IMG/VR virus record: IMGVR_UViG_2547132415_000014
Coordinates: 1-21,879 of that record
DNA length: 21,879 nucleotides
From: a virus
Taxonomy: Duplodnaviria; Heunggongvirae; Uroviricota; Caudoviricetes
Strand: one strand, 5' to 3'
Made by a program: the position numbers and the translations under genes. The notes below the pieces were generated by a model. The model was not told the origin of the DNA. It saw nothing but the letters and a program-made list of their open reading frames with translations, and did not search any database. Each line of letters opens with the position of its first letter. The first letter of the stretch is position 1. This document shows, in pieces, positions 828-21,879 of this stretch.

Positions 828-833
828 TAAGAC

Positions 834-2796: not shown

Positions 2797-2954
2797 CGGC
2801 AGTACCACGAAACAACCCAAGCCAGTAAGTGGGGAAATAACACTGGCAGCCACTGAAAGATGAACCTCCTGCCTTATGGCAAAAAAGATTCTTTGTGGTG
2901 GCGGACTGATGGAAAGACATCCTAATCAAGCAACTACTCTACAGGGCCATAATT

Positions 2955-3326: not shown

Positions 3327-3429
3327 TTATTACAAAAGCCATTCCCTACAGAGTGGCTTTGATAATGGCTTATACCCTACACGGGATAACTTAACTGATA
3401 TCCCTTTTAACGGATAAACGGAGCCAACA

Positions 3430-3672: not shown

Positions 3673-3674
3673 AC

Positions 3675-4115
3675 ATGGCGCGCCCAACAAAGTATCAAGA
3701 GGCGTATGCCGAACAGGCACGCAAACTGTGCTTGCTGGGCTACACCGATGCAGAACTTGCTGATTTCTTTGAAGTCAGTGAGTCAACTATTAACAAGTGG
3801 AAGCTTGATTATCCTAAGTTTTCGGAGTCCATAAAAAAGGGTAAGGCCGTCGCTGATGCAGAAGTTAGTGACCGTCTTTATCAACGCGCTATGGGCTTTG
3901 TGGCTCCAGACATCGATATTCGTGTTATTGAAAACAGAATTGTCGAAACTCCGCTTGAGAAGTATTACCCGCCTGATACAACCGCCGCCATCTTCTGGCT
4001 TAAGAACCGACAGAAGGATAAATGGCGCGACAAGGTTGATCACGAGCTAACAGGCAAAGACGGCGGCGCAATCCAGATTGAAACATCACCGATGAGCACT
4101 CTATTCGGAAAATGA
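3675..4115 (+). CDS. terminase small subunit (Sf6 gp1-like)
   Basis: 146-aa product; C-terminus ELTGKDGGAIQIETSPMSTLFGK recalled as matching the Sf6-type small terminase; immediately precedes and overlaps the large terminase (ATGA). Confidence 0.85.
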   Translation: MARPTKYQEAYAEQARKLCLLGYTDAELADFFEVSESTINKWKLDYPKFSESIKKGKAVADAEVSDRLYQRAMGFVAPDIDIRVIENRIVETPLEKYYPPDTTAAIFWLKNRQKDKWRDKVDHELTGKDGGAIQIETSPMSTLFGK

Positions 4116-5527: not shown

Positions 5528-5528
5528 T

Positions 5529-7727
5529 ATGGCAGAAAAAAAGATGACTGACTGGCATCGCAAGGTGCTGTGCAACTTTGATAATGCCTGGTCAGCAACG
5601 CAGGATATGCGTGAGCAGATTATTGAGGCTCAACGCTTCGTCAGGGTGTCCGGCGCACAGTGGGAAGGCAGCACAAACGCTGGTTACTCATTTGATGAAG
5701 GCAGGTTCGAGCATTATCCGCGTTTTGAACTGAATAAGATTACCCGTGAATGTGATCGCATCATTGGCGAGTATCGACAGAATCGCATCAGCGTTAAATT
5801 CAGGCCGAAGGATGACAAGGCATCGGAAGCGTTAGCCGAAAAAATGAACGGCAAATTCCGCGCTGACTATCAGGAAACATCCGGTGGCGAAGCGTGTGAT
5901 AACGCATTTGATGATGCCGTAACGGGCGGATTCGGTTGTTTCCGCATGTGTGCCGATTATGAAGATGAAATGGATCCGAGTAACGAGAAACGCCGTATAA
6001 GCCTTCTCCCTGTTTACGACCCAGCGACATGCGTCTTCTTTGATCAGGACAGCAAGCAATATGACCGCTCTGATGCTATGTGGGCTATGGAAATGTTCTC
6101 CATGACGCCTAAAGCGTTCGAGGCTGAATACCCTGATTCCATCGCGGCAAGCCTTTCTCGTGATGACACTGGCACTCAATATGACTGGTCAACCCCTGAT
6201 GCTATCTATGTTGGTCGCTACTACGAAGTTCGCATAGAGAAGGTGAAGCTCGCGGCATGGCGCAACCCTGTCAGCGGAGAAACGGCAATCTATGATGAAG
6301 AGCAAATCAAAGATATTGTCGACGAGCTGACCGATGGCGCATTCGAACTGATTGGTGAGCGGACAGTGAAGAAACGCAGAGTTTATTGCGGTCTTCTGTC
6401 TGGCGCTGAATGGCTGGAAGAACCGAAGCGTATTCCGGGCGAACATATTCCTCTCATCCCGGTATATGGGCGTCGATCATTTGTTGATAATCAGGAGCGA
6501 ATCGAAGGCCACGCAGCAAAAGCGATGGATGCACAGCGTCTTGAGAACCTGATGGTTTCCATGATTGCAGATAACGCCACTCAGGCTGGCGGCGATGGCA
6601 TTCCTGTAGTTGATGTTGACATGATTCCTGGTCCTCTTGCCACTCATTGGGCGGAGCGCAACAAAAAGCGCCCGGCGTTCCTGCCGATGGTCAGTCTGAA
6701 AAACAAAAACGGAGATATTACTGCGCAGGCTCAGGTCAGCAGTTATACACCTCCGACACAAATGCCTCCTGCTCTTGCCGGGCTATTGCAGTACACCGGA
6801 ACGGCTATTCAGCAAATTACAGGTGCGTCGCAGCTTGAGAATATGCCGAGCAACGTCGCTACCGATACCGTTGATAGCATCTTTAACCGGATGGACACGC
6901 AGTCCTATATCTACATGGACAACATGGCTAAATCCATGCGCCGTGCTGGCGTCGTGTGGCTTTCTATGGCTCGTGAAGTCTATGGCAGTGATACGCCGAT
7001 GCGTATCGTTAATGAGGACGGCAGCGATGACGTGGCGCTGATGACTGGTGAAGTGGTTGACCGTCAGACAGGGCAGGTTATCGCGCTTAATGACCTTTCG
7101 CAGGGTAACTATGAAGTGACTGTCGATGTTGGCCAGTCGTTCGCTACTCGCCGTGATGCAACGGTTAAGTCGTTACTTTCCATGCTGGCACTTATCCCAC
7201 CAGGAACTCCGAAGCACGACCTTGTATCGTCGATGATTCTCGACAATATGGACGGCGAAGGGATGGACGACCTGAAAGAATACAACCGCAATCAGTTGCT
7301 TCTGTCTGGCGTTATCAAGCCGAGAACGCCTGAAGAACAGCAGATGGTTGAACAGGCGAAACAACAACAGGCCAGTCAGCCAGATCCGGCTATGGTTGCA
7401 GCGCAAGGTCAGCTTCTTGCTGGTCAGGCTGAATTGCAGAAAGCGCAGAACGAACAGGCAGCCATTCAGGTTAAAGCATTCCAGGCACAGACTGATGCTC
7501 AGGTTGCAGCGGCAAATGTTGTGAAAATCCTCGCATCTGCCGATAGCCAGCAGAAATCTGATATCCGCGAGGCTCTGAAACTGCTCGGACAGTTCCAGCA
7601 ACAGCAAGGAGACAATGCCCGTGCTGATGCAGAGCTTGTCCTGAAAAGTCAGGCACAGGGTCATGCGCAGCGCATGGACATCAACAGCATCCTGCAAAAA
7701 TCAACTCAGCAACAACCACAGCAGTAA
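5529..7727 (+). CDS. portal protein (P22 gp1-like) with Gln-rich C-terminal barrel region
   Basis: 732 aa; recalled P22-portal hallmarks (GEHIPLIPVYG, PEEQQMVEQAKQQQASQPDPAMVAAQGQLLAGQAELQKAQ, ARADAELVLK...QRMDI); starts 2 nt after the terminase stop. Confidence 0.9.
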   Translation: MAEKKMTDWHRKVLCNFDNAWSATQDMREQIIEAQRFVRVSGAQWEGSTNAGYSFDEGRFEHYPRFELNKITRECDRIIGEYRQNRISVKFRPKDDKASEALAEKMNGKFRADYQETSGGEACDNAFDDAVTGGFGCFRMCADYEDEMDPSNEKRRISLLPVYDPATCVFFDQDSKQYDRSDAMWAMEMFSMTPKAFEAEYPDSIAASLSRDDTGTQYDWSTPDAIYVGRYYEVRIEKVKLAAWRNPVSGETAIYDEEQIKDIVDELTDGAFELIGERTVKKRRVYCGLLSGAEWLEEPKRIPGEHIPLIPVYGRRSFVDNQERIEGHAAKAMDAQRLENLMVSMIADNATQAGGDGIPVVDVDMIPGPLATHWAERNKKRPAFLPMVSLKNKNGDITAQAQVSSYTPPTQMPPALAGLLQYTGTAIQQITGASQLENMPSNVATDTVDSIFNRMDTQSYIYMDNMAKSMRRAGVVWLSMAREVYGSDTPMRIVNEDGSDDVALMTGEVVDRQTGQVIALNDLSQGNYEVTVDVGQSFATRRDATVKSLLSMLALIPPGTPKHDLVSSMILDNMDGEGMDDLKEYNRNQLLLSGVIKPRTPEEQQMVEQAKQQQASQPDPAMVAAQGQLLAGQAELQKAQNEQAAIQVKAFQAQTDAQVAAANVVKILASADSQQKSDIREALKLLGQFQQQQGDNARADAELVLKSQAQGHAQRMDINSILQKSTQQQPQQ

Positions 7728-7817
7728 TTAACCCATAACGTGCAATGGCTGTCTTTATGAGGCCTGGCACCCTATTGCCTTCCGATGGGCTGAACATCGA
7801 GTAAACAGGGGTAACAA

Positions 7818-8711
7818 ATGGACCAGATGGCAGAAAACACACCAGAAGTTGAAATCGAAACCGACGCGTCAGAGCAGATTCCTGATGATGTCGAACTGGC
7901 TGAAGAAGTCGAAACAGAAGATGGCAGTGAGTCATCCGGCAATGATGTAGAGGAAGCTACTGAAACTGATGACGACGAATCAGAACAGGAATTCTACTTT
8001 GGTGACGAAAAGCTGGATTCGCCAACCAGCGAAGATGGCGCAGAGCATGGACTGGTAAAACACCTGCGCAAGACGATTAAAGAGAAAGACCGCGAGCTGA
8101 AAGAGCTGATGCGTCAGTCTCAGAAACCCGTCGAGCAGCAGCCGGTAATCACTCAACCACCGCGAATGCCAAAACTGGACGATGAGGACATCGGTTTCGA
8201 TGAAGAAATCTACCAGCAACGCATGGCTAAGTGGGCAGAGGATAACGGCAAGTACCAGCAACAGGAGATGGCTCGCAAGCAGAAGGAGCAGGAGCTTCAG
8301 GCTGCTTATCAAGAGCGATTATCCAAATATCAGCAACGTGTTAAGGCTCTCAAGGTTCCTGGCTATCAGGAAGCAGAACAGGCCGTACTCGAGGAAATCC
8401 CCATCGAGACACAAAACGCGATCCTGTTTGAGTCAGAGAAGCCGGAAATCGTTGTTCTAGCGCTTGGTCGCAACGCTGAACTGCGCAAGCAACTGGCAGA
8501 AGCTACCAACCCCGTAGCAATTGGTCGTCTGCTGGAACGTATCGAATCGAAGGCCAGAATCATGCCAAAAGCAAAAACCACGGCAGCCACAACCCCGACA
8601 GTTAAGGGGAGCAACGGCGCAGTAATCAATAACCTCGACAAACTGAAAGCCAGGGCGCTGGAAACTGGTGACTGGACGCCGTATTTCGCCGCTAAAAAGG
8701 CAAAAAAATAA
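7818..8711 (+). CDS. scaffolding protein
   Basis: 297 aa, acidic N-terminus, charged helical middle, basic C-terminus; located between portal and coat as in P22 (gene 8). Confidence 0.8.
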   Translation: MDQMAENTPEVEIETDASEQIPDDVELAEEVETEDGSESSGNDVEEATETDDDESEQEFYFGDEKLDSPTSEDGAEHGLVKHLRKTIKEKDRELKELMRQSQKPVEQQPVITQPPRMPKLDDEDIGFDEEIYQQRMAKWAEDNGKYQQQEMARKQKEQELQAAYQERLSKYQQRVKALKVPGYQEAEQAVLEEIPIETQNAILFESEKPEIVVLALGRNAELRKQLAEATNPVAIGRLLERIESKARIMPKAKTTAATTPTVKGSNGAVINNLDKLKARALETGDWTPYFAAKKAKK

Positions 8712-8729
8712 CCTATCGGAGCATTAAGC

Positions 8730-9983
8730 ATGACTAACCAATTAGCAAAAGACCTTGAAATCATGTTCGAAAACTACGTTGAAGGCTTTGAGGCCGCCTG
8801 CGTAGTTTCCCGTAACGCTAAAAAATTCCGTCCCGGTGATACAGCAATGCAGCGAGCAGGTGATGTTCTGTATCGTCCGCAGCATTACCACATGAACATT
8901 GAGGAAGGCCTCGACCTCAGCAGCAAAACGCCAACAGCACTGGTTCAGCGCCTTGTTCCTTCTGTGTTCAAGGAGCCGAAAAACATTCTGTACACTCTGG
9001 ATGCGCGTGAAATGCGTGACCCGGAACATAAAACTGAAGCTGGTCGCGCTGCAGGTATGCGCCTTGCTGCACAGATTGACTCTGACCTGATTTCCATGGT
9101 CACGCAGCGTGCTACTAACGTGATCACAATGGCTGATTCAACCACTGGTTCACAGGGCCGTGATTTGTGGAACTGTGCGGCAGGTATTGATGCCACCATG
9201 ACGGCGATTGGTGTACCGCAGGGTATCAATCGTCGCTCTTTCTGGAACCCCTTCAACTACAAAGACCTTGCTGGCGAGCTTGGTCACCGTGCCTATGCTC
9301 AGGGCGCAACCCTGACAGCATACGAAAAAGCGCAGATCCCTCCGGTTGCGTCCTTCGATAGCTACAAGACCGATATTTCTGGTCGTGTTCCGAAGGGTAC
9401 AGCAACTTCCCTGACGCTGGCGGCTGAACCTGCGCACAAGGTTGAAGCGAAAGATGCCAACGATATGCCAGTGGATAACCGACAGGGGACTATTACGGTA
9501 TCTGCATCTGGGTTGCAGGTTGGCGATGCGTTCACCATTGCTGGCGTGAATTCTGTACACCAGATCACCAAAGACACCACCGGGCAGCCGCAGGTATTCC
9601 GCGTTCTGGCAGTAAGCGGAACGACAGTAACTATCTCCCCGAAAATTCTGCCGCCTGACAACGCAGATGTCGCCAGCCGTCCATATGCAAACGTTGATGC
9701 TAACGCGGCAAATGGTGCAGCAATTACCATTCTCAACAAGAATGCCGCACCGGCTAACCTGTTCTGGGCTGATGGTTCTGTTGAGCTGATGTACGGCAAA
9801 CTGGCGTTCCCGACTGGTCAGGGTCCACAGGTAATGACAGCAACCACCGAGCAGGGCGCTACGCTGATCATGTCTTACGCCTTCGACCACATCAAAGGCG
9901 TAACCACTGCGCGTTTCACCACTCTGTACGGTTGCTCTGTACTTGTTCCTGAATATACGGGCATCGTTATTGCCGGGCAGTAA
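8730..9983 (+). CDS. major capsid (coat) protein, P22 gp5-like HK97 fold
   Basis: 417 aa; strong SD (cggag); followed directly by a strong terminator; position and size match P22/Sf6-type coat proteins. Confidence 0.9.
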   Translation: MTNQLAKDLEIMFENYVEGFEAACVVSRNAKKFRPGDTAMQRAGDVLYRPQHYHMNIEEGLDLSSKTPTALVQRLVPSVFKEPKNILYTLDAREMRDPEHKTEAGRAAGMRLAAQIDSDLISMVTQRATNVITMADSTTGSQGRDLWNCAAGIDATMTAIGVPQGINRRSFWNPFNYKDLAGELGHRAYAQGATLTAYEKAQIPPVASFDSYKTDISGRVPKGTATSLTLAAEPAHKVEAKDANDMPVDNRQGTITVSASGLQVGDAFTIAGVNSVHQITKDTTGQPQVFRVLAVSGTTVTISPKILPPDNADVASRPYANVDANAANGAAITILNKNAAPANLFWADGSVELMYGKLAFPTGQGPQVMTATTEQGATLIMSYAFDHIKGVTTARFTTLYGCSVLVPEYTGIVIAGQ

Positions 9984-9989
9984 TTTTGG

Positions 9990-10010
9990 TGGGGCTTCGG
10001 CCCCATTTTT
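9990..10010 (+). terminator. intrinsic terminator after the coat gene (tggggc-ttcg-gcccca then T5)
   Basis: Perfect 6-bp GC stem with a ttcg tetraloop, followed by ttttt 10006-10010. Confidence 0.65.
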
Positions 10011-10024
10011 ATTGGGAGAAGACA

Positions 10025-10213
10025 ATGGCACGAACAATGCTCTATAAGCCGGGCAACATGATCACCTGTGGTCAGTTTGCTGTCGATTACATCATTGTTG
10101 ATGACGAAGAAGTTAAATCTCACCTGAAAAAAGGTTGGGTGAAAACTCCTGAAGAAACCGCAACGAAGCAAAAAGTGGCTAAGGCGGAAGAAGATGGCGA
10201 AAACGAAGGGTGA
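10025..10213 (+). CDS. hypothetical small protein (62 aa)
   Basis: ATG 10025 preceded by gggagaag; the longer ORF from 9986 would start inside the terminator hairpin, so the internal start is preferred; overlaps the gp4 start by 20 nt. Confidence 0.45.
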   Translation: MARTMLYKPGNMITCGQFAVDYIIVDDEEVKSHLKKGWVKTPEETATKQKVAKAEEDGENEG

Positions 10214-10655
10214 TCTCGTTCTAAAGGCTTTACGAAAAGCCGGGCTGTATTCCAATGCCACGTTGACAGATGCTGACCCTCAGGCAATTGAAGATGCCAT
10301 TAATGACCTCGAAGACATGATGGCAGCATGGCAGGCTAAAGGTATCGAGCTTGGATATCAGTTTGCTGATACAGAAAACGGCATCATGCCGTTACCTGAC
10401 GATGATTCAGGCATCCCTGCATGGGCAAATGATGGCGTCGCTTTGAAACTCGCTGTGCAAGTGTGCATGGATAACGTCATTCAGCCGTCAGACGCTCTCC
10501 TTACCGCTGCTGACAGTGCATATCAAACAATCTGTATCGCTTTAACCAAAATACCACCACTTGAGCGGCGAAATGACATGCCTCGCGGTAGTGGCAACAA
10601 AAGCGCGTTTACGTGGAATCGGTTTTACATCGAGAAAGATGATCCGAGTACGTGA
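10194..10655 (+). CDS. head-to-tail adaptor (P22 gp4-like)
   Basis: 153 aa; N-terminus KTKGDLVLKALRKAGLYSNATLTDADPQAIEDAINDLEDMMAAW and MPRGSGN motif recalled as P22 gp4-like. Confidence 0.85.
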   Translation: MAKTKGDLVLKALRKAGLYSNATLTDADPQAIEDAINDLEDMMAAWQAKGIELGYQFADTENGIMPLPDDDSGIPAWANDGVALKLAVQVCMDNVIQPSDALLTAADSAYQTICIALTKIPPLERRNDMPRGSGNKSAFTWNRFYIEKDDPST

Positions 10656-10664
10656 GGTGAATAA

Positions 10665-12083
10665 ATGCCGATTCAGCAACTTCCGCTTATGAAAGGTGTC
10701 GGCAAAGATTTCCGAAACGCCGACTATATCGACTATCTGCCAGTGAATATGTTGGCTACACCCAAAGAAATCCTTAACAGCAGCGGATATCTTCGCTCAT
10801 TCCCGGGCATTGCCAAACGCTCTGATGTGAACGGTGTATCGCGCGGCGTCGAGTACAACATGGCGCAGAATGCTGTTTATCGCGTGTGTGGTGGCAAACT
10901 GTACAAAGGAGAAAGCGAAGTCGGTGATGTTGCCGGAAGTGGTCGTGTATCAATGGCGCATGGTCGGACATCTCAGGCTGTAGGCGTTAATGGTCAACTT
11001 ATCGAGTATCGCTATGATGGTACGGTTAAAACCGTCTCAAACTGGCCTACAGACAGTGGATTCACTCAGTATGAGTTAGGTTCAGTTCGCGACATTACGC
11101 GCTTGCGTGGGCGTTATGCGTGGTCAAAAGACGGCACTGATTCATGGTTCATCACTGACCTTGAAGACGAATCGCATCCTGACCGTTACAGCGCACAATA
11201 TCGCGCAGAATCGCAGCCGGACGGCATCATCGGTATCGGCACATGGCGAGATTTCATCGTCTGTTTTGGTTCATCGACGATTGAATATTTTTCCCTGACT
11301 GGTGCAACCACTGTTGGTGCCGCTTTGTATGTCGCACAGCCATCACTGATGGTGCAGAAAGGTATTGCCGGAACTTACTGCAAAACACCATTCGCTGATT
11401 CCTATGCGTTTATCAGCAATCCGGCAACAGGTGCGCCGTCTATATATATCATCGGCTCCGGTCAGGTGTCACCAATCGCCAGCGCGAGCATTGAGAAAAT
11501 CCTCCGCTCCTACACTGCTGATGAACTGGCTGATGGCGTGATGGAGTCTCTGCGATTTGATGCGCATGAGCTGCTGATTATCCACCTTCCGCGCCATGTT
11601 CTTGTTTACGACGCATCTTCAAGCGCCAATGGTCCGCAATGGTGTGTGCTGAAAACAGGCCTGTATGACGATGTGTACCGCGCTATCGACTTCATTTACG
11701 AAGGCAATCAGATAACGTGCGGCGATAAGCTGGAGTCCGTGACCGGGAAATTGCAGTTCGATATCAGCAGTCAGTATGGTCTTCAACAGGAACACCTGCT
11801 GTTTACTCCGTTGTTCAAAGCGGATAATGCCAGAGTGTTCGACCTTGAGGTTGAGTCGTCAACTGGCGTTGCGCAGTATGCTGACCGCCTTTTTCTCTCT
11901 GCAACCACTGACGGCATCAATTACGGGCGTGAGCAGATGATTGAGCAGAATGAACCGTTCGTTTACGACAAACGTGTTTTGTGGAAGCGTGTCGGGCGCA
12001 TCAGGAAAAATGTCGGCTTCAAATTGCGCGTTATCACTAAGTCACCTGTCACTCTGTCAGGCTGCTCTATTAGGCTGGAGTAA
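10665..12083 (+). CDS. tail hub / head-completion protein (P22 gp10-like)
   Basis: 472 aa; begins MPIQQLPLMKGVGKDFRNADYIDYLPVNMLATPKEILNSSGYLRSFPGI, recalled as closely matching P22 gp10. Confidence 0.9.
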   Translation: MPIQQLPLMKGVGKDFRNADYIDYLPVNMLATPKEILNSSGYLRSFPGIAKRSDVNGVSRGVEYNMAQNAVYRVCGGKLYKGESEVGDVAGSGRVSMAHGRTSQAVGVNGQLIEYRYDGTVKTVSNWPTDSGFTQYELGSVRDITRLRGRYAWSKDGTDSWFITDLEDESHPDRYSAQYRAESQPDGIIGIGTWRDFIVCFGSSTIEYFSLTGATTVGAALYVAQPSLMVQKGIAGTYCKTPFADSYAFISNPATGAPSIYIIGSGQVSPIASASIEKILRSYTADELADGVMESLRFDAHELLIIHLPRHVLVYDASSSANGPQWCVLKTGLYDDVYRAIDFIYEGNQITCGDKLESVTGKLQFDISSQYGLQQEHLLFTPLFKADNARVFDLEVESSTGVAQYADRLFLSATTDGINYGREQMIEQNEPFVYDKRVLWKRVGRIRKNVGFKLRVITKSPVTLSGCSIRLE

Positions 12084-12085
12084 TA

Positions 12086-12579
12086 ATGATTTCACATGAA
12101 GAGTTGAAGCGTCATTTATCATATGACCCAGAAACCGGGGTTTTACCCGAAAAATATCAAATACAGCGAGCGTCACCGTTGGTGATGAAGCGGGAACCAT
12201 GTGCACTGGTTATTTAAGGATAATGGTCTGTGGTAAGAGATACTTAGCGCATAGGCTTGCTTGGTTTTATATGACAGGAAAACCTGCAAATTGCTTAATA
12301 GATCATATTAACGGAGACAGAACGGATAACAGATTTTCAAATTTAAGATTGGCAAATAGATCCCAGAATGGGATGAACAGGAATATTCAAAGAAATAATA
12401 AGTCAGGATATCCGGGTGTCTGTTGGCACAAAAATCTCTGCAAGTGGACTGTTTCTTTCAAGAAAAATAAAAAACAGGTTCACGTTGGATGCTTCGATGA
12501 CCTGGACGAAGCTATCTCAGCATCAATGATGGCAAGAGCAGAAAATTTTGGAGAGTTTGCAAGGCAGAGGATTGAGTAA
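12086..12579 (+). pseudogene. free-standing HNH homing endonuclease gene, interrupted by a 1-nt frameshift in the G4T4 run at 12137-12144
   Basis: ATG 12086 encodes MISHEELKRHLSYDPETGV then runs into a stop at 12212-12214; the -1 frame continues FTRKISNTASVTVGDEAGT into the 12199 ORF. Inserting one T in the T4 run restores a single ORF of about 164 codons. Confidence 0.5.
12199..12579 (+). CDS. HNH endonuclease, C-terminal ORF (HNH motif plus AP2-like DNA-binding domain)
   Basis: 126 aa with AHRLAW...[24 protein letters not shown] (HNH) and [19 protein letters not shown] (AP2-like); visibly AT-rich versus flanking structural genes; stop overlaps the needle start (TAATG). Confidence 0.8.
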
Positions 12580-13280
12580 TGGTTGATTCATCACTGAATG
12601 ATCCTGTTGTGGTTCAGGCTACGCGCCTTGATGCTTCAATTTTGCCACGCAATATATTCAGCCAGTCTTACCTGCTGTATGTCATAAATCAGGGAGCTGA
12701 TGTCGGCGCAATTGCCGGGAAGGCAAATCAGGCTGGTCAGGGCGCTTACGATGCTCAGGTAAAAAACGATGAACAGGACGTCGAACTGGCTGATCACGAC
12801 GCAAGAATCACCGCAAACACAAAAGCGATAAATCTACTTGAGGTCAGGTTAACAACTGCCGAAGGGAAGATAGTCGTACTGCGTAGCGATGTTGATTACT
12901 TGCTGGATGAGGTTATCGATATTCAGGCGCATCTGGTCACTGTTGACCAAAGACTGGATGACGTAGAAAGCGATGTATCTGACATTAAGAGTGATTACGT
13001 ATCGAAAACCGTAACCGAATCGCAGTCTCTTGCGTCACCGCTGGATGTAAAAACATCATATTCAGTTGATGGGATTCAGGTCGTTGGAGCAAGGCAGACC
13101 GGATGGACGGCGGCCACAGGTACACCTCTTCTTGGCTCATTCAACGCTAACCAGTCATACACTGTCGGCACTACGTACGCACAATCCGAAGTCGCAGCTC
13201 TCGCTACAGGTTTGCAGCAGTCGCGGCAGCGTATTCTGGCGCTTGAAACAGCACTTAGATTACATGGGCTGATTGACTGA
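12579..13280 (+). CDS. tail needle (P22 gp26-like trimeric coiled-coil plug)
   Basis: 233 aa; N-terminus [66 protein letters not shown] and C-terminus LRLHGLID recalled as P22 gp26-like. Confidence 0.9.
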
Positions 13281-13735
13281 TGATTACATTCAAACCAACG
13301 CGAAACATCGACCTGATAGAAGCAGTCGGAAATCACCATGACATTATCGCCGGGAGCAACAACGGTGATGGATACGACTACAAACCTGAATGCCGTTACT
13401 TTGAGGTTAACGTGCACGGGCAGTTCGGCGGCATTGTTTACTATCAGGAGATTCAGCCGCTGACATTCGATTGCCACGCCATGTACCTGCCAGAGATTCG
13501 AGGCTTCAGCAAGGAAATCGGGCTGGCGTTCTGGCGATACATTCTGACTAACACCACCGTTCAGTGCGTCACATCGTTCGCTGCGCGCAAATTCCGCCAC
13601 GGTCAGATGTACTGCGCAATGATTGGTCTTAAGCGTGTAGGAACCATCAAGAAATACTTCAAAGGCGTGGATGACGTGACGTTTTACAGCGCCACACGTG
13701 AAGAACTAATCGACTTCCTGAATAACGGGAGATAG
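13280..13735 (+). CDS. P22 gp14-like protein (head/ejection-associated)
   Basis: 151-aa ORF translationally coupled to the needle gene (TGATG); assignment rests on its position between gp26 and gp7 in the P22 gene order. Confidence 0.65.
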   Translation: MITFKPTRNIDLIEAVGNHHDIIAGSNNGDGYDYKPECRYFEVNVHGQFGGIVYYQEIQPLTFDCHAMYLPEIRGFSKEIGLAFWRYILTNTTVQCVTSFAARKFRHGQMYCAMIGLKRVGTIKKYFKGVDDVTFYSATREELIDFLNNGR

Positions 13736-13737
13736 CC

Positions 13738-14430
13738 ATGTTATATGCATTTAAGCTGGGCAGAAAACTGCGCGGCGAGGAACCTTATTGTCCTGAAAAA
13801 GGCGGGAAAGGTGGCTCCGATAAAAGCGCAAAGTATGCAGCAGAAGCCCAGAAGTATGCCGCAGACCTGCAAAATCAGCAGTTCAACACCATCATGAACA
13901 ACCTGAAACCGTTTACTCCTCTGGCTGAGAAGTATGTCGGCAGCCTCGAGAACTTATCGTCTCTGGAGGGGCAAGGTCAGGCGCTTAACCAGTATTACAA
14001 CTCTCAGCAGTACAAAGACCTTGCTGGTCAGGCGCGCTATCAGAGTCTGGCGGCAGCGGAAGCAACAGGTGGATTGGGTTCCACCGCAACCAGTAATCAG
14101 TTAGCAACAATCGCACCAACGCTTGGTCAGCAGTGGCTGTCTGGTCAGATGAACAACTACCAGAATCTGGCAAATATTGGTCTTGGCGCGCTTCAGGGGC
14201 AGGCAAATGCCGGGCAAACATATGCCAACAACATGAGCCAGATTTCACAGCAAAGCGCGGCACTGGCGGCGGCAAACGCTAATAGACCTTCCGGCCTTCA
14301 ATCTGCAATAGGCGGGGCTGCCTCTGGAGCAATTGCTGGAGCACAACTTGGCAGCATTGTTCCTGGTATTGGTACTGGTATTGGTGCCGCTGTTGGTGGC
14401 GGTCTTGGTCTGCTTGGCTCGTTGTTTTAA
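13738..14430 (+). CDS. ejection protein (P22 gp7-like) with Gly/Ala-rich hydrophobic C-terminus
   Basis: 230 aa beginning MLYAFKLGRKLRGEEPYCPEKGGKGGS; Gln/Asn-rich middle and GxxxG-rich C-terminal tail; position in the 7-20-16 ejection block. Confidence 0.85.
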   Translation: MLYAFKLGRKLRGEEPYCPEKGGKGGSDKSAKYAAEAQKYAADLQNQQFNTIMNNLKPFTPLAEKYVGSLENLSSLEGQGQALNQYYNSQQYKDLAGQARYQSLAAAEATGGLGSTATSNQLATIAPTLGQQWLSGQMNNYQNLANIGLGALQGQANAGQTYANNMSQISQQSAALAAANANRPSGLQSAIGGAASGAIAGAQLGSIVPGIGTGIGAAVGGGLGLLGSLF

Positions 14431-14439
14431 GGGGTAATC

Positions 14440-15915
14440 ATGGCTACGTGGCAACAGGGTATTAATTCTGGTGGTTTTCTGGCTGGCATCGGTACGCAAA
14501 ATGAGAATGCGCCAAAGGCAAGCGACATTAACGCAACGCTTGGTCTGATCCGCGAAAACAATGAATTGGCTCGATCAGGTGCAAATAACGTTGGTCTGAC
14601 CGCGTTACGTGGTCTGGCTGGAGTTGCTGATATTTATAAGCAGGAACAGCAACAGAAAGCTATTAGGGCGTTCAATAAGGTTCACGCTGATGCATGGGCT
14701 TCTGGTGATCCATCGGGACTATTTAAGTTTGCCAAGGAAAATCCAGCGTTTGTTGCACAGGCACAACAGGCGTTTTCCGGTCTTAATGAGCAGCAACGTA
14801 ACGATATGGGCGATTTAGCCATGAGGGCTAACGTCGCTCTTTCTCAGGGACCGGAAGCCTACAGTAAATTCATTACTGACAACAAGGACAGGTTAAATCG
14901 CGTTGGCGCTAATGCTGACTGGATGATTCAGACAGGTATTCAGAATCCAGAGCAGCTATCACACATGCTGACTACTATGTCTCTCGGTGCGCTTGGACCA
15001 GAAAAGGCGTTTGCTGTTCAGGACAAGATAGCTGGTCGTGAGATTGACCGAGGCAGACTGGCAGAGACAATCCGCAGCAATCAGGCCAGCGAAGCACTTC
15101 AGGCGAGAGGGCAGGATATTAGCCGAGCAAATGCGTTAACGTCAGCATATGCACCAACAGCCGCAATGCAGAATTACAATCAGTACGCGCAAATGTTAAA
15201 GGCGGATCCAGATGGTGCAGCGGCATTTGCGGCAGCGGCGGGAATTAATCCCAATGCTAAGAAATTACTTAAGGTTGAAACCAATCCTGATGGCTCGGTA
15301 ACTAAGTATTACACCGATGGCAGCGAGGAAGCAGGAAAACTAAACCAACCTATATCTGGTGATGGCATTAAACCAATTAGTTTGCCACAAGCGCAAAGCA
15401 TCATAGATAAGGCTAATGAGGGTTCCAAGAAGGCGGCAGGATTTGCTTTGCGATTAAAAGATTCAATGGACTCAATGAATCAGCTTAGTAAAAGCATTGA
15501 CCCTAAGCGAGTTGCATTAATAAATCGCTCTCTTGGTGATGGGACTATTGCAAATTTAAGCCTATCACCAGCGGAGCAGCAATATATGGTAAATGCGAGA
15601 GACGCCTTGTATGCAATTTTGCGCCCAGAAACAGGTGCAGCAATTACTCTGCCAGAGATGCAGGAGTATTCCAAAATGTACCTGCCTCAGCCCGGTGATT
15701 CCAAGGCTGCTACTGAAACAAAAATGCGAAAAATGCAGGGCCAATATAACTCATTACGTGGTCAGTCTGGTCGCGTTTATGATGCTTTGGTGGTTTCAAG
15801 TGCTGCAAATAGTCAACAACAGAGCAATAGCCAACAACCGACAAATACCCAACAGCAGCAGAGTCAATCCGGATCATATACCTCAAAATCAGGCATTCAA
15901 TTTACGGTGGAATGA
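14440..15915 (+). CDS. ejection protein (P22 gp20-like)
   Basis: 491 aa; second gene of the ejection block; Q/S-rich low-complexity C-terminal tail. Confidence 0.85.
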
Positions 15916-17753
15916 TGAAAGTAACTGCAAACGGTAAGACATTTACCTTCCCTGATGGTACGAGCACGGAAGATATTGGCACCGCCATTGATGAGTATTT
16001 TGCTGGTCAGGCTGTTCAGCAACAAACAGTTAATCAGGCCAATAATGAACCAGCACGTGAAGAACCATCATTGATGCAACAAGCTGGCGATTGGCTCACA
16101 GGTGGTCAAAGTGCAGGGCAAATTGCAGAGCAGGCTGGTCGTGGTCTGGTAAACATACCATTTGACGTATTGCAGGGTGGCGCAAGTCTGATTAATGCAA
16201 TCAGTCAGGGGCTTGGTGGGCCAAAAGTTTTGGATGATGTTTATCGTCCTGTAGATAAACCGACAGACCCATACGCACAAGCCGGTGAAACAATTGGTGG
16301 GTATTTAGTTCCAGGAGTTGGAACGGCAGGAAGCATGGCTATTGGATCGCTGGCAGAGGCCGCAAATCAGAAAGGCGATTTCGCACAAAATGCAGCTAAA
16401 AATGCCGGAGTTAACCTTGCCGCTCAGGGTGTTCTTTCCGCAGCAGCAAAGGGAATAGGGCGTGGAATAACGGCTATAAAAGGTGATATTGCGCCAGAAG
16501 TGGCGAAGAAAATTGCCACATCAGAATCGATGGGCGTGACACCAATGACATCTGATGTTATCCCGCCGAAAAATGCTTTCACTCGCGGCCTTACTCAGGA
16601 TGCCGAGGGGGCTTTGCTCGGGACGGGCTCAAAGCGAGCAGAGCAATATGCAACGCGTAGTAAGCTGGTAAGCAATTATTTTGACCGTTTTGGTGAGTAC
16701 AACCCTGATGATGTGGTGAAATCTCTGACCACCACGTTAAGGGGGCGGAAGGATGCTGCTGGCGCTGTTATCAATGACGTCACCAATAAAATGGGTAATG
16801 CCGCAGTTGATACTACAAATACCATGAATGCTCTGAATACAGCGATCGCAAGACAGGAACGGCTTGGGACTTCAGCCAATCAAAGCCTGCTTACATCCTT
16901 GCGTAACCTGCGTGAAGAATTAGCAAACCCTGCAACTGATTTGGATGTTACGTTTGATCTCTTGCGTCAGCACAGAACAGCATTTAGATCTAATGTTCAG
17001 GGAGATGCTATGGTCTTCCCCAACCAGGCAAAAGCAGCTACCAATATGGTAGAGAATGCAATGTCAAAAGACCTTCGTAACGCAGTTGCAAAAAACCTCG
17101 GTGCGTCAGACGCAGCAAAATACCTTAAAGCAAATTCCGATTATGCAAACGTTTATAATAAGGTGCTTAATAAAAACATTGCTAACAAGCTCAACAAGGC
17201 AAGCAGTGAAGCCAGTCCTGAACTTATAAATACTGTTGTATTAAGCAGAAAACCATCTGACGTGAAACGAATCTGGAGCGCATTGGATGATAAAGGGAAA
17301 GATGCTATGCGTGCAGCTTACGTCAGCAAAATAGCGGAAAAGGCCGGTGACTCTCCAGCCAAGTTCATCACTGAAGTTAATAAGCTGAAATCTCAGTCAG
17401 GCGGTGAAATTTACAACACTATTTTTTCTGGAAAGCACATGAAAGAGCTTGATTCTCTTCATGAAGTTCTAAAGCAAACAGCAAGGTCAGACACCGCAAA
17501 TGTAGTAACTCAGACGGGGCAATCGCAAGCCAACCGGATAAGGACGATTGGCGCAACTGCGACTCTTGGCGTATCAATGGGGCTTGAGGCTGGCTTTGGT
17601 GCAATGATGCGTTTGTATGAGTCTAAAGCAGCAAGAAACATGCTTCTCCGCCTTGCAAACGTCAAGCCTGGAACTCCGGCATATGAGCGAGCGTTAAATC
17701 AGGCTGCTAACGCCGTTCGCCCTCTCCTAACTAACGAAGCTACCAGGCAGTAG
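15912..17753 (+). CDS. ejection protein (P22 gp16-like)
   Basis: 613 aa beginning [38 protein letters not shown], recalled as P22 gp16-like; start overlaps the gp20 stop (the true start may be the second ATG at 15915). Confidence 0.9.
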
Positions 17754-17772
17754 AAATGAACGCCAAGGAAGG

Positions 17773-18102
17773 CTATTTAATTCTCTTTTCAATGGCTGCA
17801 ATTATTGCTTTTCCTGATGTTTCAGGAGATTTTGTAGCCATATAAGACGAAAAAATCATGTCGGTCATTCTTTCATAACTTACTATTTCCCACTTAGCCA
17901 ATGCATGGGACAGTTTGTAGTTGTCATCAGTTAGTGCCCTTATGGAATTTTTTAAGTGTTTATTCTCTTCTGTTAATCGCGCAATTTTTGTATCAATTTC
18001 ATGTGAGCGATCTAATTCCTTAACCTGTTTCTTGAGGGCAGCTAACCCTGCATATAGTACGCAACAGGATATCCCAAGAGCGAGTACGACTATTTCTAAC
18101 AC
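17773..18102 (-). CDS. small bitopic membrane protein: N-terminal TM helix plus coiled-coil domain (function unknown)
   Basis: GTG start at 18102 with a strong SD AAGGAGG 5 nt upstream (plus-strand cctcctt 18108-18114); product MLEIVVLALGISCCVLYAGLAAL then a heptad-like KKQVKELDRSHEIDTKIARLTEENKHLKNSIRAL; AT-rich. The 181-aa ATG-extended version looks like antisense junk. Confidence 0.6.
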   Translation of the reverse strand: MLEIVVLALGISCCVLYAGLAALKKQVKELDRSHEIDTKIARLTEENKHLKNSIRALTDDNYKLSHALAKWEIVSYERMTDMIFSSYMATKSPETSGKAIIAAIEKRIK

Positions 18103-18132
18103 ACCAACCTCCTTAGTTTTTCGCAGGATACC

Positions 18133-18498
18133 ATGAAAAAAGTTAACATTGGAAACGTACCAAAGATGCTCGTTCCGCTCTTTGAGAGCGGTACAATTGT
18201 GTTTTGTAGAGACTTTCCAGAATGGCAACGCCTGCATCAAAAACTTGGTGTGGACGTGCAGGACTCGGATGCCAACGGAGCGTCTCATACAATGAGCAGC
18301 GAGAATGGTGTTTTGCATGTGATAGGCGTGTTCAATGGCAAACTATCTACTATTGCCCATGAGTGCGCTCACATGGCATTCGATATCTGCTCAAGGGTCG
18401 GTGTTGATGTTGAACCAGGAAGAGCCAACGAGACTTACTGCTACTTAATGAGCAGGCTTGTTGAGTTCTGCGAGCGACATATCAAAAAGCCGGAGTGA
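18133..18498 (+). CDS. HExxH zincin-like small protein, possible minimal ImmA/IrrE-type metallopeptidase (function unknown)
   Basis: 121 aa; motif TIAHECAHMAF followed about 14-20 residues later by E...ANE...YLM, a pattern recalled from M78-type peptidases; SD-like agga 5 nt before the ATG. Start codon uncertain (internal Met alternatives exist). Confidence 0.55.
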   Translation: MKKVNIGNVPKMLVPLFESGTIVFCRDFPEWQRLHQKLGVDVQDSDANGASHTMSSENGVLHVIGVFNGKLSTIAHECAHMAFDICSRVGVDVEPGRANETYCYLMSRLVEFCERHIKKPE

Positions 18499-18506
18499 CC
18501 CGGCTT
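18487..18506. terminator. candidate bidirectional terminator hairpin (aagccgg-agtgac-ccggctt) between the HExxH gene and the YjzC-like gene
   Basis: 7-bp stem flanked by an A-run on one side and a T-rich stretch on the other, so it reads as a hairpin plus U-tract on both strands (better on the minus strand). Confidence 0.45.
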
Positions 18507-18511
18507 GATTA

Positions 18512-18691
18512 TTACTTTTTGCTGTCTGGAGTTCGCTTATCTAATACCCAGCCATGACCTGGCTTTGTTGTTGGTGGAAGCCTTTCGTTGTCCTTGACGG
18601 TGGCAAAATTGTCTTTCTTACCGCCGCGCGGGCCAACTTCTTGGTATATTCCGCCGTTTTTTCCTGTGTTTTCACCTGGTTTTTTCGCCAT
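18512..18691 (-). CDS. YjzC-like small protein (59 aa)
   Basis: ATG at 18691 preceded by gaggt; product MAKKPGENTGKNGGIYQEVGPRGG...LPPTTKPGHGWVL shows the KPGE/NGGIY/LPPT pattern recalled for the YjzC family; own promoter candidate upstream. Confidence 0.6.
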   Translation of the reverse strand: MAKKPGENTGKNGGIYQEVGPRGGKKDNFATVKDNERLPPTTKPGHGWVLDKRTPDSKK

Positions 18692-18727
18692 GATATACCT
18701 CAACATACACCCGTTATTGGGCGATTA

Positions 18728-18756
18728 AATATTGATCTCATTTTATAAGTAGTCAA
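18728..18756 (-). promoter_or_regulatory. candidate sigma70 promoter for the YjzC-like gene (-35 TTGACT, 17-bp spacer, -10 AATATT)
   Basis: Minus-strand TTGACT (plus 18751-18756) and AATATT (plus 18728-18733) with 17-bp spacing, about 35 nt upstream of the start codon and just downstream of the mnt terminator. Confidence 0.4.
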
Positions 18757-18783
18757 TATGGCCCAGGTAAATGCAAAAATTAA

Positions 18784-18805
18784 CCCACCGTCAGGTGGGT
18801 TTTTT
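18784..18805. terminator. bidirectional intrinsic terminator (cccacc-gtca-ggtggg) flanked by A5 upstream and T6 downstream
   Basis: Perfect 6-bp GC stem; T6 on the + strand (18800-18805) and ttaattttt on the - strand; the hairpin overlaps the mnt stop codon. Confidence 0.7.
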
Positions 18806-19042
18806 GTACAAATCCTTCAGCGTATCAAACACCATCTTCTTAACAAGTTCGGACTGCTCATCAGCGATGCGTTCCGCATCGTCTCGATAGCCTGAAATTT
18901 TGGATGGCTTTGATACAGCATCAGTCACTATCTGAACTAATTCTGAATTAAGAGAGCGGCCATTGGATTTGGCTCGCTGTTTTAGTTTTTCCTTTAATTC
19001 GTAAGGTAGCCGCAGATTAAATTGCGGGTCATCTCTTCCCAT
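18791..19042 (-). CDS. mnt: Mnt repressor (ribbon-helix-helix, Arc/Mnt family)
   Basis: 83-aa product MGRDDPQFNLRLPYELKEKLKQRAKSNGRSLNSELVQIVTDAV...DAERIADEQSELVKKMVFDTLKDLYKKPT, recalled as closely matching P22 Mnt; leftward orientation as in P22 immI. Confidence 0.9.
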   Translation of the reverse strand: MGRDDPQFNLRLPYELKEKLKQRAKSNGRSLNSELVQIVTDAVSKPSKISGYRDDAERIADEQSELVKKMVFDTLKDLYKKPT

Positions 19043-19101
19043 TCTTGATGCCTCGCTTTTGTGAGTGGATCGGCATCTTATTATCTGCTGGTTGCATCCT
19101 C

Positions 19102-19124
19102 AATAAGACCACAGTGGTCGTATT
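19102..19124. promoter_or_regulatory. candidate Mnt operator: near-perfect palindrome centred on 19113 (core GACCACAGTGGTC)
   Basis: 13-bp perfect palindrome 19107-19119 extended to about 21 bp with one mismatched pair; lies in the mnt-tailspike intergenic region, where O_mnt sits in P22. Confidence 0.55.
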
Positions 19125-19189
19125 TTTTTGATTAATAATGCATCACTGTGGCAATGATGCGGCGATTCCTTGTATCTGGAGCAAATTAA

Positions 19190-21247
19190 ATGACAGACAT
19201 TACAGCCAATGTTGTAGTGAGTATGCCTTCGCAACTCTTCACTATGGCTCGTTCTTTTAAAGCCGTAGCCAATGGCAAAATTTATATCGGTAAAATTGAC
19301 ACTGACCCAGTAAATCCTGAAAACCAGATTCAGGTTTGTGTGGAGAATGAAGACGGTTCTCACGTTCCTGTTTCGCAACCAATAATCATTAACGCTGCTG
19401 GATATCCGGTATATAACGGACAGATTGCCAAGTTCGTAACTGTGCAAGGCCATTCTATGGCTGTTTATGATGCGTATGGTGCACAGCAGTTCTATTTTCC
19501 TAATGTGCTGAAGTATGACCCGGATCAGTTAAGACAAGAGTTAGCAACAGAGGGTAATGAAATACTTGTTGACGACTCCCGTATTGCAGTTAAAAGTGTT
19601 CATGTAAATTCAAAACTTAGAACCCAGCACAATAAAAACGCAGAAATAATCACGCCAAATGATTTTATATCAAATTATGACATGATATCTGCAGCTATTA
19701 ACTCTGGAGATAGTGCCGCAGTATTTAATTCCAGGTATGCATTCACAATAACAGTTGGGGAATATGGTAATTTTAAATCTATTAGTGATGCTCTAAACTC
19801 AGCTGTTGCACTGCGTCCACTATGGAAAAATGGCATTGATTTTTGCATAATTAAAATTCTTTCCGGTTTTGTGCTCAATGAGCAAATAGAAATTTCAGCA
19901 GGATGTGACTTATCATGGATTAAAATAATATCAGAAGACTCAGTGGTTTTCTCTGATACCAGTTTGTTTACTAAAACTGTTAGGACGTATTACGAATACA
20001 AATATTTATTTTACATTTGCGATGCAGCAAAAAGTCCTGTATTTGCTATTCAGATTGAAGAAAATAGAGATGATAGCGATGTTTGTGCATTTATTGTAAC
20101 TCAAAAAGCTGAACTTAATTTCTATCCGTATTCAGGTGCTCGAAAGTTCTACGTTGGAATTCATGGTAGCTTTGGTGCAAAAATTAGTGCATATCATACC
20201 GGATGTGCTCCTGATGAGGAAAGTGTTGCTGCATATATGCCAGAAGGGTATTACGTATGTGATTTTTCTTATAGCAGATACTCTTCCCTGCAACTGGTAA
20301 ATAATGTCAAGGCATCAATGCCTGTAAGCAAGTTTGAACGGTGCACAGAGAGTACGGTTGCGTCAGTTAATTGTATTTATAATGTTAAAGCAGATTTTCA
20401 GGGGTCAAGTGCAAGCTATTGTTATATAGGATGGAATGTAAGAGATGGTTCAAATGTTAATATACGCGACCATAAAACTATACATTGCTCATATCGTGGA
20501 TTAACCTGCATTCATACAGCATATGTTGATGCAAGACGACATGACGTTGAAGAAAGTGATGCAGAAACAAGTGGTAAAGTCCTTGAACCAAATATTGAAA
20601 AAGGTTTTTATGGATGTGCACTTGGTGTGCGTATTGATGGTGCGGGTTGTGTTGATGTTGCTGGTAATGATATGCGCAATTGTGGAACAGCCGTTAATGC
20701 AGACACTGGTGCTGTTATTTCAGGAAAGGCTGTAGATATCTCAGGGGCTGAGTTGGGATTTGATTGCCATGCAGGAGCATCTGTTAATTTTCCAAGGCTA
20801 TGGGGTACAGATATAAAAAAATTAATGCACCTCCAAGATGGTGTAAGGTTTAACTCTAATATTTGTCATGTATTTGGTGCAAATCCCACAAAAGATATTA
20901 GATGGATTGATGTAGAGAGATCTGAAGCTTCTTTTATGAATGCAACGCTGGATGCAGATTCAGGATTTATTGCCGACTGTGGTAGTAGGATAACCATTGA
21001 AGGAAGTAAAGTTAAAAACCAAACAATAAGAAGTTTTTTTGGATCACATGTGGCTATAAATAATACTGTTGCTGACAGAACTTATTCAGATATAGCCGAT
21101 GTTCCGCAGTTGACTATTAGTGGAGGATCTTTTATTTCTGCTACAGGATATTCTAATTCTGACTCCAGCCCTCTTAGGTTGAGCACAACACGAAATACAC
21201 TTGGAGTTGGAGGAGCCATATTTTCAACCAATGGGGAAGTTTCATGA
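19190..21247 (+). CDS. tailspike protein: P22 gp9-type N-terminal head-binding domain fused to an unrelated beta-helix-like receptor-binding/depolymerase domain
   Basis: First ~110 aa ([34 protein letters not shown]...NVLKYDPDQ) recalled as P22 tailspike head-binding domain; the rest is unrelated, AT-rich, Cys-rich (~20 Cys) and Asn/Ser/Gly-rich. Confidence 0.9.
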
Positions 21248-21543
21248 TTAAGAGCATTGATGTCACTCCATTTCTTCACTCGCTTTGCGCTTTTGCGGCT
21301 CAGGTACTGGTTGGTATTTTTACCGGAAACTGGGCTTACGGTGCGATAGCCGGTTGTACGTTCTTCATTGCGCGTGAACACACCCAGGCAGAATATCGCT
21401 GGATAGAAAAGTTTGGGAAAGGGAAACGTGTCAACATGCCGTGGTGGGGAGGTTTTGATCCACGCGTGTGGGATGTGGGAAGTTTGTTGGATTTTTCTTT
21501 CCCAATTATCGGATGCTTATTGGTATGGATTCTTGCATCGTAG
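21244..21543 (+). CDS. small membrane protein (99 aa, two hydrophobic segments), translationally coupled to the tailspike
   Basis: ATG overlaps the tailspike stop (ATGA); hydrophobic segments [30 protein letters not shown] and [19 protein letters not shown]; occupies the slot between tailspike and att that holds conversion genes in P22. Confidence 0.5.
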
Positions 21544-21774
21544 CGAACACATAATTACCGATGAGACAAAACTGAGACACACCAAGCTTTGCACTGGATT
21601 GCAAGGCTTTGTGCTCTTCTATGCTGGGTGGCTACATGTTTGAAGATCGTTGTGCCGTATTTGTGACATACACATGACAACATCATGCATCAACTTTCTG
21701 TTTGTGCCATCAACTATTGCTTGGTGAATGCGGCTAATGCTTGCTAAAACAGATAGTTATGATTGGTGCTACAG

Positions 21775-21820
21775 ATTCGTAATGCGAAGGTCGTAGGTTC
21801 GACTCCTATTATCGGCACCA
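21775..21820 (+). other. attachment-site core: 3' 46 nt of a tRNA-Thr(CGU) gene (thrW-like), anticodon loop to CCA, without the 5' half
   Basis: attcgtaatgcgaaggtcgtaggttcgactcctattatcggcacca contains anticodon CGT in its loop, T-arm GGTTCGACTCC, acceptor 3' strand and CCA; upstream sequence cannot form the 5' half. P22-type phages integrate into thrW. Confidence 0.7.
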
Positions 21821-21879
21821 TTAAAATCAATAAGTTACACATCATTAGTACCTTCCTTATTTTTTGACTGGGACAAATT

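Follow-up and report, generated by a model that had tools for sequence, protein, structure and literature searches.

The P22-family tailspikes P22 gp9, Sf6 gp14 and HK620 gp9 are proven O-antigen endoglycosidases in which a head-binding domain (PF09008) is followed, after a recombination-prone junction, by a β-helix receptor module, and their genes lie at the end of the late operon, after those of the ejection proteins and a remnant of the immI region. The swapping of tailspike modules is a textbook phenomenon. CUS-3, a P22-like prophage of Escherichia coli K1, carries an endosialidase for polysialic acid behind the same head-binding domain, and is a precedent for a P22-like temperate phage with a spike aimed at a group-2 capsule and not at the O antigen. 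Here we analyse the spike gene found in positions 1 to 21,879 of the virus record IMGVR_UViG_2547132415_000014 (hereafter the window), which is the late region of a P22-like E. coli prophage. The spike has the head-binding domain, the gene position and the predicted β-helix of the P22 family, with 82–96% nucleotide identity to P22-family spikes over the first 340 nt and 94% to CUS-3 in the head-binding domain. In contrast to the P22-family spikes, its receptor module is unrelated in sequence, lacks any PDB or Pfam match and is much more AT-rich, and the lysogens that carry it are not tied to one O antigen; it is unrelated, too, to the CUS-3 endosialidase module. We consider it reasonably probable that this is a receptor module specific for the capsules K52 and K116.

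The same phage genera were surveyed by Pas et al. (2023), who described the same modularity of anchor and receptor-binding domain and found some receptor-binding protein (RBP) subtypes in prophages of many O serogroups, suggesting the capsule (K antigens) as their receptor (PMC10408124). The subtype of phages JEP4, HZ41 and VEc3 described below is absent from that survey, and here a specific pair of K loci is named.

Architecture of the spike

The spike gene and its parts, as delimited by profile matches, nucleotide breakpoints and structure prediction, are as follows.

19190..21247, plus strand: tailspike gene, the gene 9 equivalent of a P22-like prophage; ORF (open reading frame) of 685 aa with a full-length PHROG 5662 match.
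19190..19528, plus strand: head-binding (particle-attachment) domain, aa 1–113; PF09008, E 4.4e-66, profile positions 1–113 of 113.
19529..19874, plus strand: neck or linker and N-terminal helix cap, aa 114–228; recombination breakpoints inside it by blastn; predicted local distance difference test (pLDDT) of the model 43–87.
19875..21247, plus strand: predicted core receptor-binding β-helix, aa 229–685; 98–99.6% nucleotide identity across P22-like, phiV10-like and phi92-like coliphages.

The protein is identical to a protein cluster of 190 member sequences (P0001), named at source as [quoted passage not shown]. A reading made from the sequence alone, without database searches (the sequence-only reading), had seen in the gene a P22-type tailspike whose head-binding domain is conserved and whose receptor module has been exchanged, and both the PF09008 match and the nucleotide breakpoint bear this out. 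A PDB sequence search matched the head-binding part to the N-domains of Sf6 and P22, and the first ~340 nt are 82–96% identical to the spikes of CUS-3, HK620, Sf6 and epsilon34. When the spike ORF was compared by megablast with 50,697 phage records, 34 gave a match, of which 30, including CUS-3, HK620, Sf6, Sf101 and epsilon34, matched only from ORF nt 1 to 339–355 (window 19528–19544). The end of P22-type similarity had been placed at about residue 110, near 19520, after the motif NVLKYDPDQ (aa 105–113, nt 19502–19528); the Pfam match ends at aa 113 and the nucleotide similarity at 19528–19544, in agreement with that placement. The accompanying claim that the remainder is unrelated holds for the β-helix but not for the neck, which has weak protein similarity to Sf6 and other spikes up to about aa 160–200. 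This similarity takes in an RTQH(D/N)KN motif and reaches aa 160 in the case of Sf6.

Capsule loci of the lysogens

A prophage spike can be assumed to suit the surface of the bacterium that harbours it, a premise that Pas et al. (2023) used for the same phage genera (PMC10408124). On this basis we read the surface polysaccharide loci of complete E. coli genomes that bear the module. The group-2 kps locus of strain 118UI starts with kpsFEDUCS and an IS3 element, continues with four K-specific genes (encoding a 524-aa protein, a HAD phosphatase, a GT2 and an 828-aa acyltransferase) and ends with kpsT, a gene for a 1247-aa TagF-like protein (PF04464, E 6e-41), a galactosyltransferase-related gene and kpsM. 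Strain FORC_082 has a shorter, related locus comprising kpsS, a 262-aa acyltransferase, a 1249-aa TagF-like protein, a galactosyltransferase-related gene, kpsT and kpsM. In both loci the TagF-like protein matches PF04464 with an E-value of ~1e-40. The capsule polymers made by TagF-like polymerases are of a teichoic-acid-like or hexose-phosphate kind (PMC5974469).

The three proteins that the two loci have in common show pairwise identities of 71%, 47.1% and 63.4%. Supplementary file 5 of the kTYPr paper (2026) gives 68.5% for K52_10/K116_7, 48.4% for K52_12/K116_8 and 63.1% for K52_13/K116_9 (PMC13171606). Because the identity values, the gene order and the gene numbering match those of that paper, we provisionally identify the loci as K52 (118UI type) and K116 (FORC_082 type).

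Of 5426 complete genomes, 40 have a 3.5-kb piece of region 2 of the 118UI kps locus; ten of the 16 module-bearing records belong to this set, with phiV10-like as well as P22-like carriers. Region 2 of FORC_082 was found in nine of the 5426 genomes, and five of these nine carry the module (FORC_082, PCP07083, GN02461, PD23 and GPEC1186). Taken together, 15 of the 16 module-bearing complete E. coli records carry one or the other locus, the restriction by capsule type that would be expected of a K-antigen-specific spike, and both loci together are present in 49 of the 5426 genomes (0.9%). The association has a one-sided Fisher p of 3e-31, or 3e-29 after one duplicate record is dropped. A conservative collapse leaves six of about seven independent acquisitions in K52-like or K116-like backgrounds (p 4e-12); we treat these acquisitions as independent because they are spread over two phage genera and different O types, and because the P22-like prophages occupy at least two attachment sites (ybhB-bio and argW). 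The sequence-only reading had held that the specificity cannot be read from sequence. This is true of the protein taken by itself, but not of the whole comparison, in which the lysogens follow a pair of rare, related group-2 capsule loci and not a single O antigen.

Predicted fold and family of the receptor module

The AlphaFold2 monomer model has a pLDDT of 92.2 and a predicted template modelling score (pTM) of 0.87, with all-beta rungs. The predicted structure consists of stacked three-stranded rungs forming a right-handed β-helix, as in the pectate-lyase-like superfamily, and so the β-helix suggested from the sequence was reproduced by structure prediction. By analogy with its relatives, the spike is expected to be a homotrimer. 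The closest fold is that of the receptor protein of the Staphylococcus phage Andhra (gp15, PDB 8egr), with a superposition clearly above the generic β-helix background. The relation is structural, with only 14–17% identity, and 8egr was not recovered by phmmer or by a 24-sequence family profile against PDB at E-values up to 10; neither search gave anything beyond the adaptor region. Andhra gp15 belongs to a phage of a Gram-positive host and has a coiled-coil N-terminus where the spike described here has a head-binding domain. The Andhra RBP has been assigned to wall-teichoic-acid recognition (PMC9710869). The phi29 pre-neck appendage gp12, which includes an autocleaving chaperone domain, resembles the module far less in structure and not at all in sequence.

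The suggestion that the module is a glycanase found no support. Pfam and NCBIfam gave no match beyond aa 113, including Beta_helix PF13229, Pectate_lyase_3 and the glycoside hydrolase and polysaccharide lyase families; PF13229 was reached by remote relatives only. The glycanase assignment is also not supported because the closest fold is that of a receptor protein without established enzymatic activity. No well-characterised spike with a known specificity matched the module; such a match would have spoken against the sequence-only reading.

A word-seeded search of 5.8 billion protein clusters with aa 111–685 returned 24 clusters only, at 36–100% identity, and an exhaustive HMMER scan of 1.84 billion representatives gave 15 matches at E ≤ 1e-30 and 41 at E ≤ 1e-10. 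Judged by these searches, the receptor-module family appears to be small. As PHROG 5662 it is already in the databases, uncharacterised and outside the curated enzyme families. The BFVD structure matches that could be named from the look-up tables all lack a characterised function; the best of them come from Bacillus, Vibrio and Aeromonas phages, and three of the five top-ranking matches are unnamed. Conservation within the family peaks at aa 236–510, with conserved polar residues at aa 240–540, and the last 130 residues are variable. About 25 polar residues are invariant across homologues of 36–100% identity and lie within the motifs EENRxDSD, GARKF, WNxRDG, NIRDHK, ARRHD and GNDMRNCG.

A remote relative, the metagenomic phage spike P0150 (L041 1276–3771), has 29% identity over query aa 9–280 and a C-terminal GDPD glycerophosphodiester phosphodiesterase. 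Its gene adjoins a GH108 endolysin gene in a phage contig, which we take as a sign of a Gram-negative host. Both this remote GDPD fusion and the structural resemblance to an RBP that binds teichoic acid would fit a phosphodiester-linked ligand.

Weighing the candidate receptors

A conventional O-antigen endoglycosidase of the kind known from P22, Sf6 and HK620, directed at a single E. coli O serogroup, is suggested by the head-binding domain and gene position common to these spikes, by the β-helix fold, and by the finding that the spikes of Lederbergvirus and Uetakevirus prophages usually track the O serogroup of the host (PMC10408124). The rfb loci of the lysogens argue strongly against it. 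Strain 118UI and four relatives are O15, FORC_082 is O5, PCP07083 is O7, MS 198-1 is O11 and EC332 has an unnamed O cluster with rmlBDAC and glf. Lysogens with copies of the module that are at least 98% identical in nucleotide sequence thus span at least five O clusters, where an O-antigen endoglycosidase would be expected to be restricted to a single serogroup, and the module is present in just one of 35 O5 genomes. Among the classic serogroups of the lineage CC69 are O11 and O15. Pas et al. treat subtypes found in multiple serogroups as probably not directed at the O antigen (PMC10408124). Because the lysogens span at least five O clusters and only one of the 35 O5 genomes has the module, we regard a single-serogroup O-antigen spike as very unlikely indeed.

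Several points also weigh against a K52/K116 receptor. The most likely receptor was arrived at by comparative genomics and not by experiment, and we infer that the two loci are K52 and K116 from matching values and gene order rather than from a typing tool. EC332 bears the module together with another group-2 locus (glf, a sugar dehydrogenase and GT2s) that has no TagF Pfam match; K-locus switching is frequent in such lineages (PMC13171598). Part of the capsule association is clonal: many K52 carriers belong to one lineage, CC69, of which K52 is the commonest K locus (PMC13171598). JEP4, whose spike has the same module, lysed 32 of 67 chicken extended-spectrum β-lactamase E. coli strains (48%; 74% of phylogroup A), and its receptor was not determined in that study (PMC8425383). 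This range is hard to fit because the K52 and K116 loci occur in only 0.9% of complete genomes, unless the collections are enriched for these loci or the host-range assay overestimates infection. Within the module itself, Pfam, NCBIfam and PDB searches gave no glycosidase, lyase or phosphodiesterase family, and no catalytic residues were found.

Some of these points would also be explained by hitch-hiking, with the spike binding another shared receptor (the lipopolysaccharide (LPS) core, enterobacterial common antigen, another exopolysaccharide or a protein) and K52/K116 strains being simply the lineages in which the prophages circulate. The concentration of K52 in CC69 (PMC13171598), the broad lysis by JEP4 (PMC8425383) and the EC332 exception all agree with this. 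The single LPS core locus examined, the waa locus of FORC_082, has the order waaQGPO-GT8-Y-W-GT2-L, a common R1/R4-like arrangement that does not discriminate between the readings but would allow a core receptor. However, the association is repeated across both capsule loci and both phage genera, with at least two attachment sites for the P22-like prophages and at least four O types, K116 carriers vary in genome size, source and O type, and six of the seven collapsed events still give p 4e-12. The occurrence of the module amid variable spike genes in the phi92-like phage 92CQ, and the fold and remote GDPD fusion that point to phosphodiester polymers, also argue against hitch-hiking, which we consider unlikely. 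We give similarly little weight to an adhesin-type fibre that binds the capsule or another glycan without enzymatic activity. A short-tailed phage must get past the capsule, the ~25 invariant polar residues are concentrated in the central rungs, as in enzymatic spikes, and most characterised podovirus spikes of such architecture are enzymes.

Two further features of the surface loci were observed. An IS element (ISAs1, IS1 or IS4) lies at or beside galF, just upstream of the O-antigen operon, in 118UI, FORC_082 and MS 198-1 (all three junctions seen), and in the colanic acid locus of FORC_082 wcaJ is frameshifted and fcl truncated.

Proposed mode of action and significance

For a capsule-directed spike, we propose the following scheme. 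The N-terminal 113 residues would dock the spike to the virion, and the right-handed β-helix of PHROG 5662 (aa ~114–685) would recognise a group-2 capsular polysaccharide and not the O antigen. The most likely targets are the phosphodiester-containing polymers made by the TagF-like capsule polymerases of E. coli K52 and the related K116. Such an anionic polymer could be bound along a groove lined by conserved Arg, Lys, His and Asp residues and then cleaved by glycosidase or phosphodiesterase chemistry, which would let the short-tailed phage tunnel through the capsule to the outer membrane. A bolder proposal, which we put forward tentatively and hold to be doubtful, is that this is the first K52/K116-specific depolymerase acting on a teichoic-acid-like phosphodiester capsule, possibly as a phosphodiesterase and not a glycosidase, and that its β-helix lineage is shared with the teichoic-acid-binding RBPs of Gram-positive podoviruses. 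If that shared lineage were true, one spike fold would have followed the same polymer chemistry across the Gram divide.

By adaptor and position the spike is an ordinary P22-type modular tailspike; its specificity is probably new. K52 is reported to have the highest invasive potential estimated for any E. coli K type and to rank in the top five in European bloodstream infections (PMC13171598); K116, a type defined only recently, has likewise been linked to invasive disease (PMC13171606). K52 is absent from a published list of coliphage depolymerase capsule specificities, relative to which a K52/K116 specificity would, if true, be new (PMC12488582). If confirmed, the module could be used as a typing reagent, an anti-virulence enzyme or a host-range cassette against CC69-type uropathogens, and would give a handle on how phages deal with the teichoic-acid-like capsules of Gram-negative bacteria. 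Capsule typing of lysogens, beside O typing, can assign specificities to orphan spike modules.

Distribution and mobility of the module

The sequence-only reading had proposed that the module was acquired horizontally. In support of this, copies with at least 98% nucleotide identity occur in three coliphage genera, and distant relatives carry the module behind four other N-terminal adaptors. Full-length copies of the spike are present in two P22-like phage isolates, HZ41 (98.4% nucleotide identity) and JEP4 (97.2%), the JEP4 protein being 99.8% identical over the last 515 aa. Breakpoints were compared by blastn against 92CQ, HEMP4 and the 118UI prophage. In 92CQ, a 130-kb phage, the match lies in a gene annotated “tail fiber” and starts at window 19618 (ORF nt 429), with 99.4–99.6% identity. 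We assign 92CQ to Justusliebigvirus because a gene located two places upstream has 99.2% identity to phi92 gp141. The module sits there amid variable spike genes, in a slot that we take to be the one occupied by the endosialidase gp143 in phi92. The phiV10-like copies match from window 19875 (ORF nt 694) at 98% and encode a spike of 729 aa, which is present in HEMP4 and on nine E. coli chromosomes; a structural gene of this prophage, 98.8% identical to that of phiV10, places it in Uetakevirus. Among the P22-like prophages, a longer unit was mapped by megablast of window 15001–21879 against the prophage ends of FORC_082, PCP07083 and MS 198-1.

19143..21619, plus strand: mosaic cassette of the spike and the small ORF that follows it; 98.4–99.3% identity among P22-like prophages, with differing upstream flanking DNA.

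More distant copies (36–70% identity) have Tail_spike_N, tail-collar, T7-fibre or head-binding adaptors, some with an additional SGNH esterase; the adaptors among the 24 protein clusters are PF09008, PF18668, PF12571 and PF03906. They are found in an Aeromonas P2/HP1-like prophage, a Salmonella T7-like contig, an SU10-like contig, a siphovirus-like contig and a podovirus with a P22-type portal. The copy in the Vectrevirus VEc3 has 48% identity. A literature search on HZ41, HEMP4, 92CQ and VEc3 gave nothing relevant.

The GC content of the module equals that of its surroundings in 92CQ (37.5%). Of six other contexts, three have surroundings that are themselves low in GC (41–44%), and there the module differs by no more than 4 points; in the 118UI prophage, the Aeromonas prophage and the siphovirus-like contig it lies 7–15 points lower than its surroundings. 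The module is a mobile cassette traded among P22-like, phiV10-like and phi92-like coliphages, and its very low GC fits the phi92-like context. The data are compatible with an origin in low-GC virulent phages, which is the direction of transfer that we infer.

In EC332 (NZ_AP039429.1), MS 198-1 (NZ_CP146687.1) and GPEC1186 (NZ_CM142789.1), part of the receptor module is matched a second time at another location in the genome, which suggests a second prophage or a remnant of one.

Composition of the module

The region had been described as AT-rich, as containing about 20 cysteines and as having Asn/Ser/Gly-rich repeats. Its AT-richness is clear: positions 19520–21247 have a GC content of 37.3% and a GC at third codon positions (GC3) of 22%, against a GC content of 49.0% for positions 1–17753. 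The module is also below those of four other P22-like spikes (HK620, Sf6, CUS-3 and Bas106), whose C-terminal modules have 44–46% GC and 36–42% GC3, and whose head-binding parts, at 42–43% GC, equal the one described here. Low GC is not general to spike modules. A positive GC skew of 0.17–0.30 on the coding strand at 19750–21250 is the highest in the whole window.

Cysteine enrichment is real and the count was slightly high. The whole protein has 18 cysteines, 17 of them among the 572 residues after aa 113 (3.0%), a fivefold excess over the nine upstream structural proteins (0.61%). Richness in cysteine is a family trait (2–4% in all 24 homologues, including the Aeromonas copy of higher GC). 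Four cysteines never vary and a fifth is kept in 92% of the sequences; the variable ones are mostly replaced by V, S, T, A, I or M, which suggests that these positions are buried. A “cysteine ladder” was considered and rejected, as three pairs of cysteines are spaced 21–23 residues apart where 1.4 are expected (P 0.15, not significant). Ser (10.6%), Asn (6.3%) and Gly (7.7%) are present as described, but no DNA tandem repeats were found within the spike ORF, and the “repeats” are β-helix rungs visible only in the predicted structure.

Neighbouring genes

From PHROG and Pfam assignments, the window contains genes for a holin, an endolysin, a Rha-like regulator, the small and large terminase subunits, portal, coat, a gp10-type head-closure protein and the tail needle, followed by three ejection proteins (gp7, gp20 and gp16), a few small moron ORFs, a Mnt/Arc-type repressor immediately upstream of the spike, and the spike itself. 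The genes on either side of the spike are as follows.

18791..19042, minus strand: Mnt/Arc-type repressor gene of the immI region; PF03869 Arc, E 2.7e-22; PF11423 Repressor_Mnt, E 2.2e-18; PHROG matches.
21244..21543, plus strand: small ORF of 99 aa with two hydrophobic segments; PHROG 1443, “unknown”; its start overlaps the spike stop (ATGA).

The 99-aa ORF has no Pfam or NCBIfam match. In the hydropathy profile its hydrophobic segments flank a conserved loop containing MPWWGGFD. Homologues with 50–90% identity lie directly 3′ of the same spike module in phiV10-like prophages, the Aeromonas P2-like prophage and two metagenomic phages, and the ORF is absent after the module in 92CQ, the T7-like contig and the SU10-like contig, three apparently virulent contexts. 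It accompanies the module in temperate phages and may be a lysogeny-associated membrane protein. The possibility that it is an exclusive partner of the module was rejected, as its family has 424 clusters and is also found 3′ of lambdoid side-tail-fibre genes.

The immI region of the window (18791–19190) holds the Mnt/Arc-type repressor only, and the FORC_082 and MS 198-1 prophages have arc and an antirepressor gene between mnt and the spike. A promoter scan of 18700–21879 gave a signal at shuffle level. Between the last ejection gene and mnt, the moron region (17773–18706) contains three ORFs with no assigned function. One of 181 aa on the minus strand matches PHROG 8100 at aa 72–180 only, so its true start is probably downstream; it is overlapped by a 121-aa ORF on the plus strand (PHROG 1365), and the third, of 64 aa on the minus strand (PHROG 3202), has a weak YjzC-like match. 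Between the gp10-type head-closure and tail-needle genes, a 126-aa HNH endonuclease ORF (12199–12579, plus strand; PHROG 99, E 1e-55) lies in a local GC dip (0.40–0.42). The FORC_082 prophage is without a gene at that spot, and the ORF looks like a homing-endonuclease insertion in the late operon.

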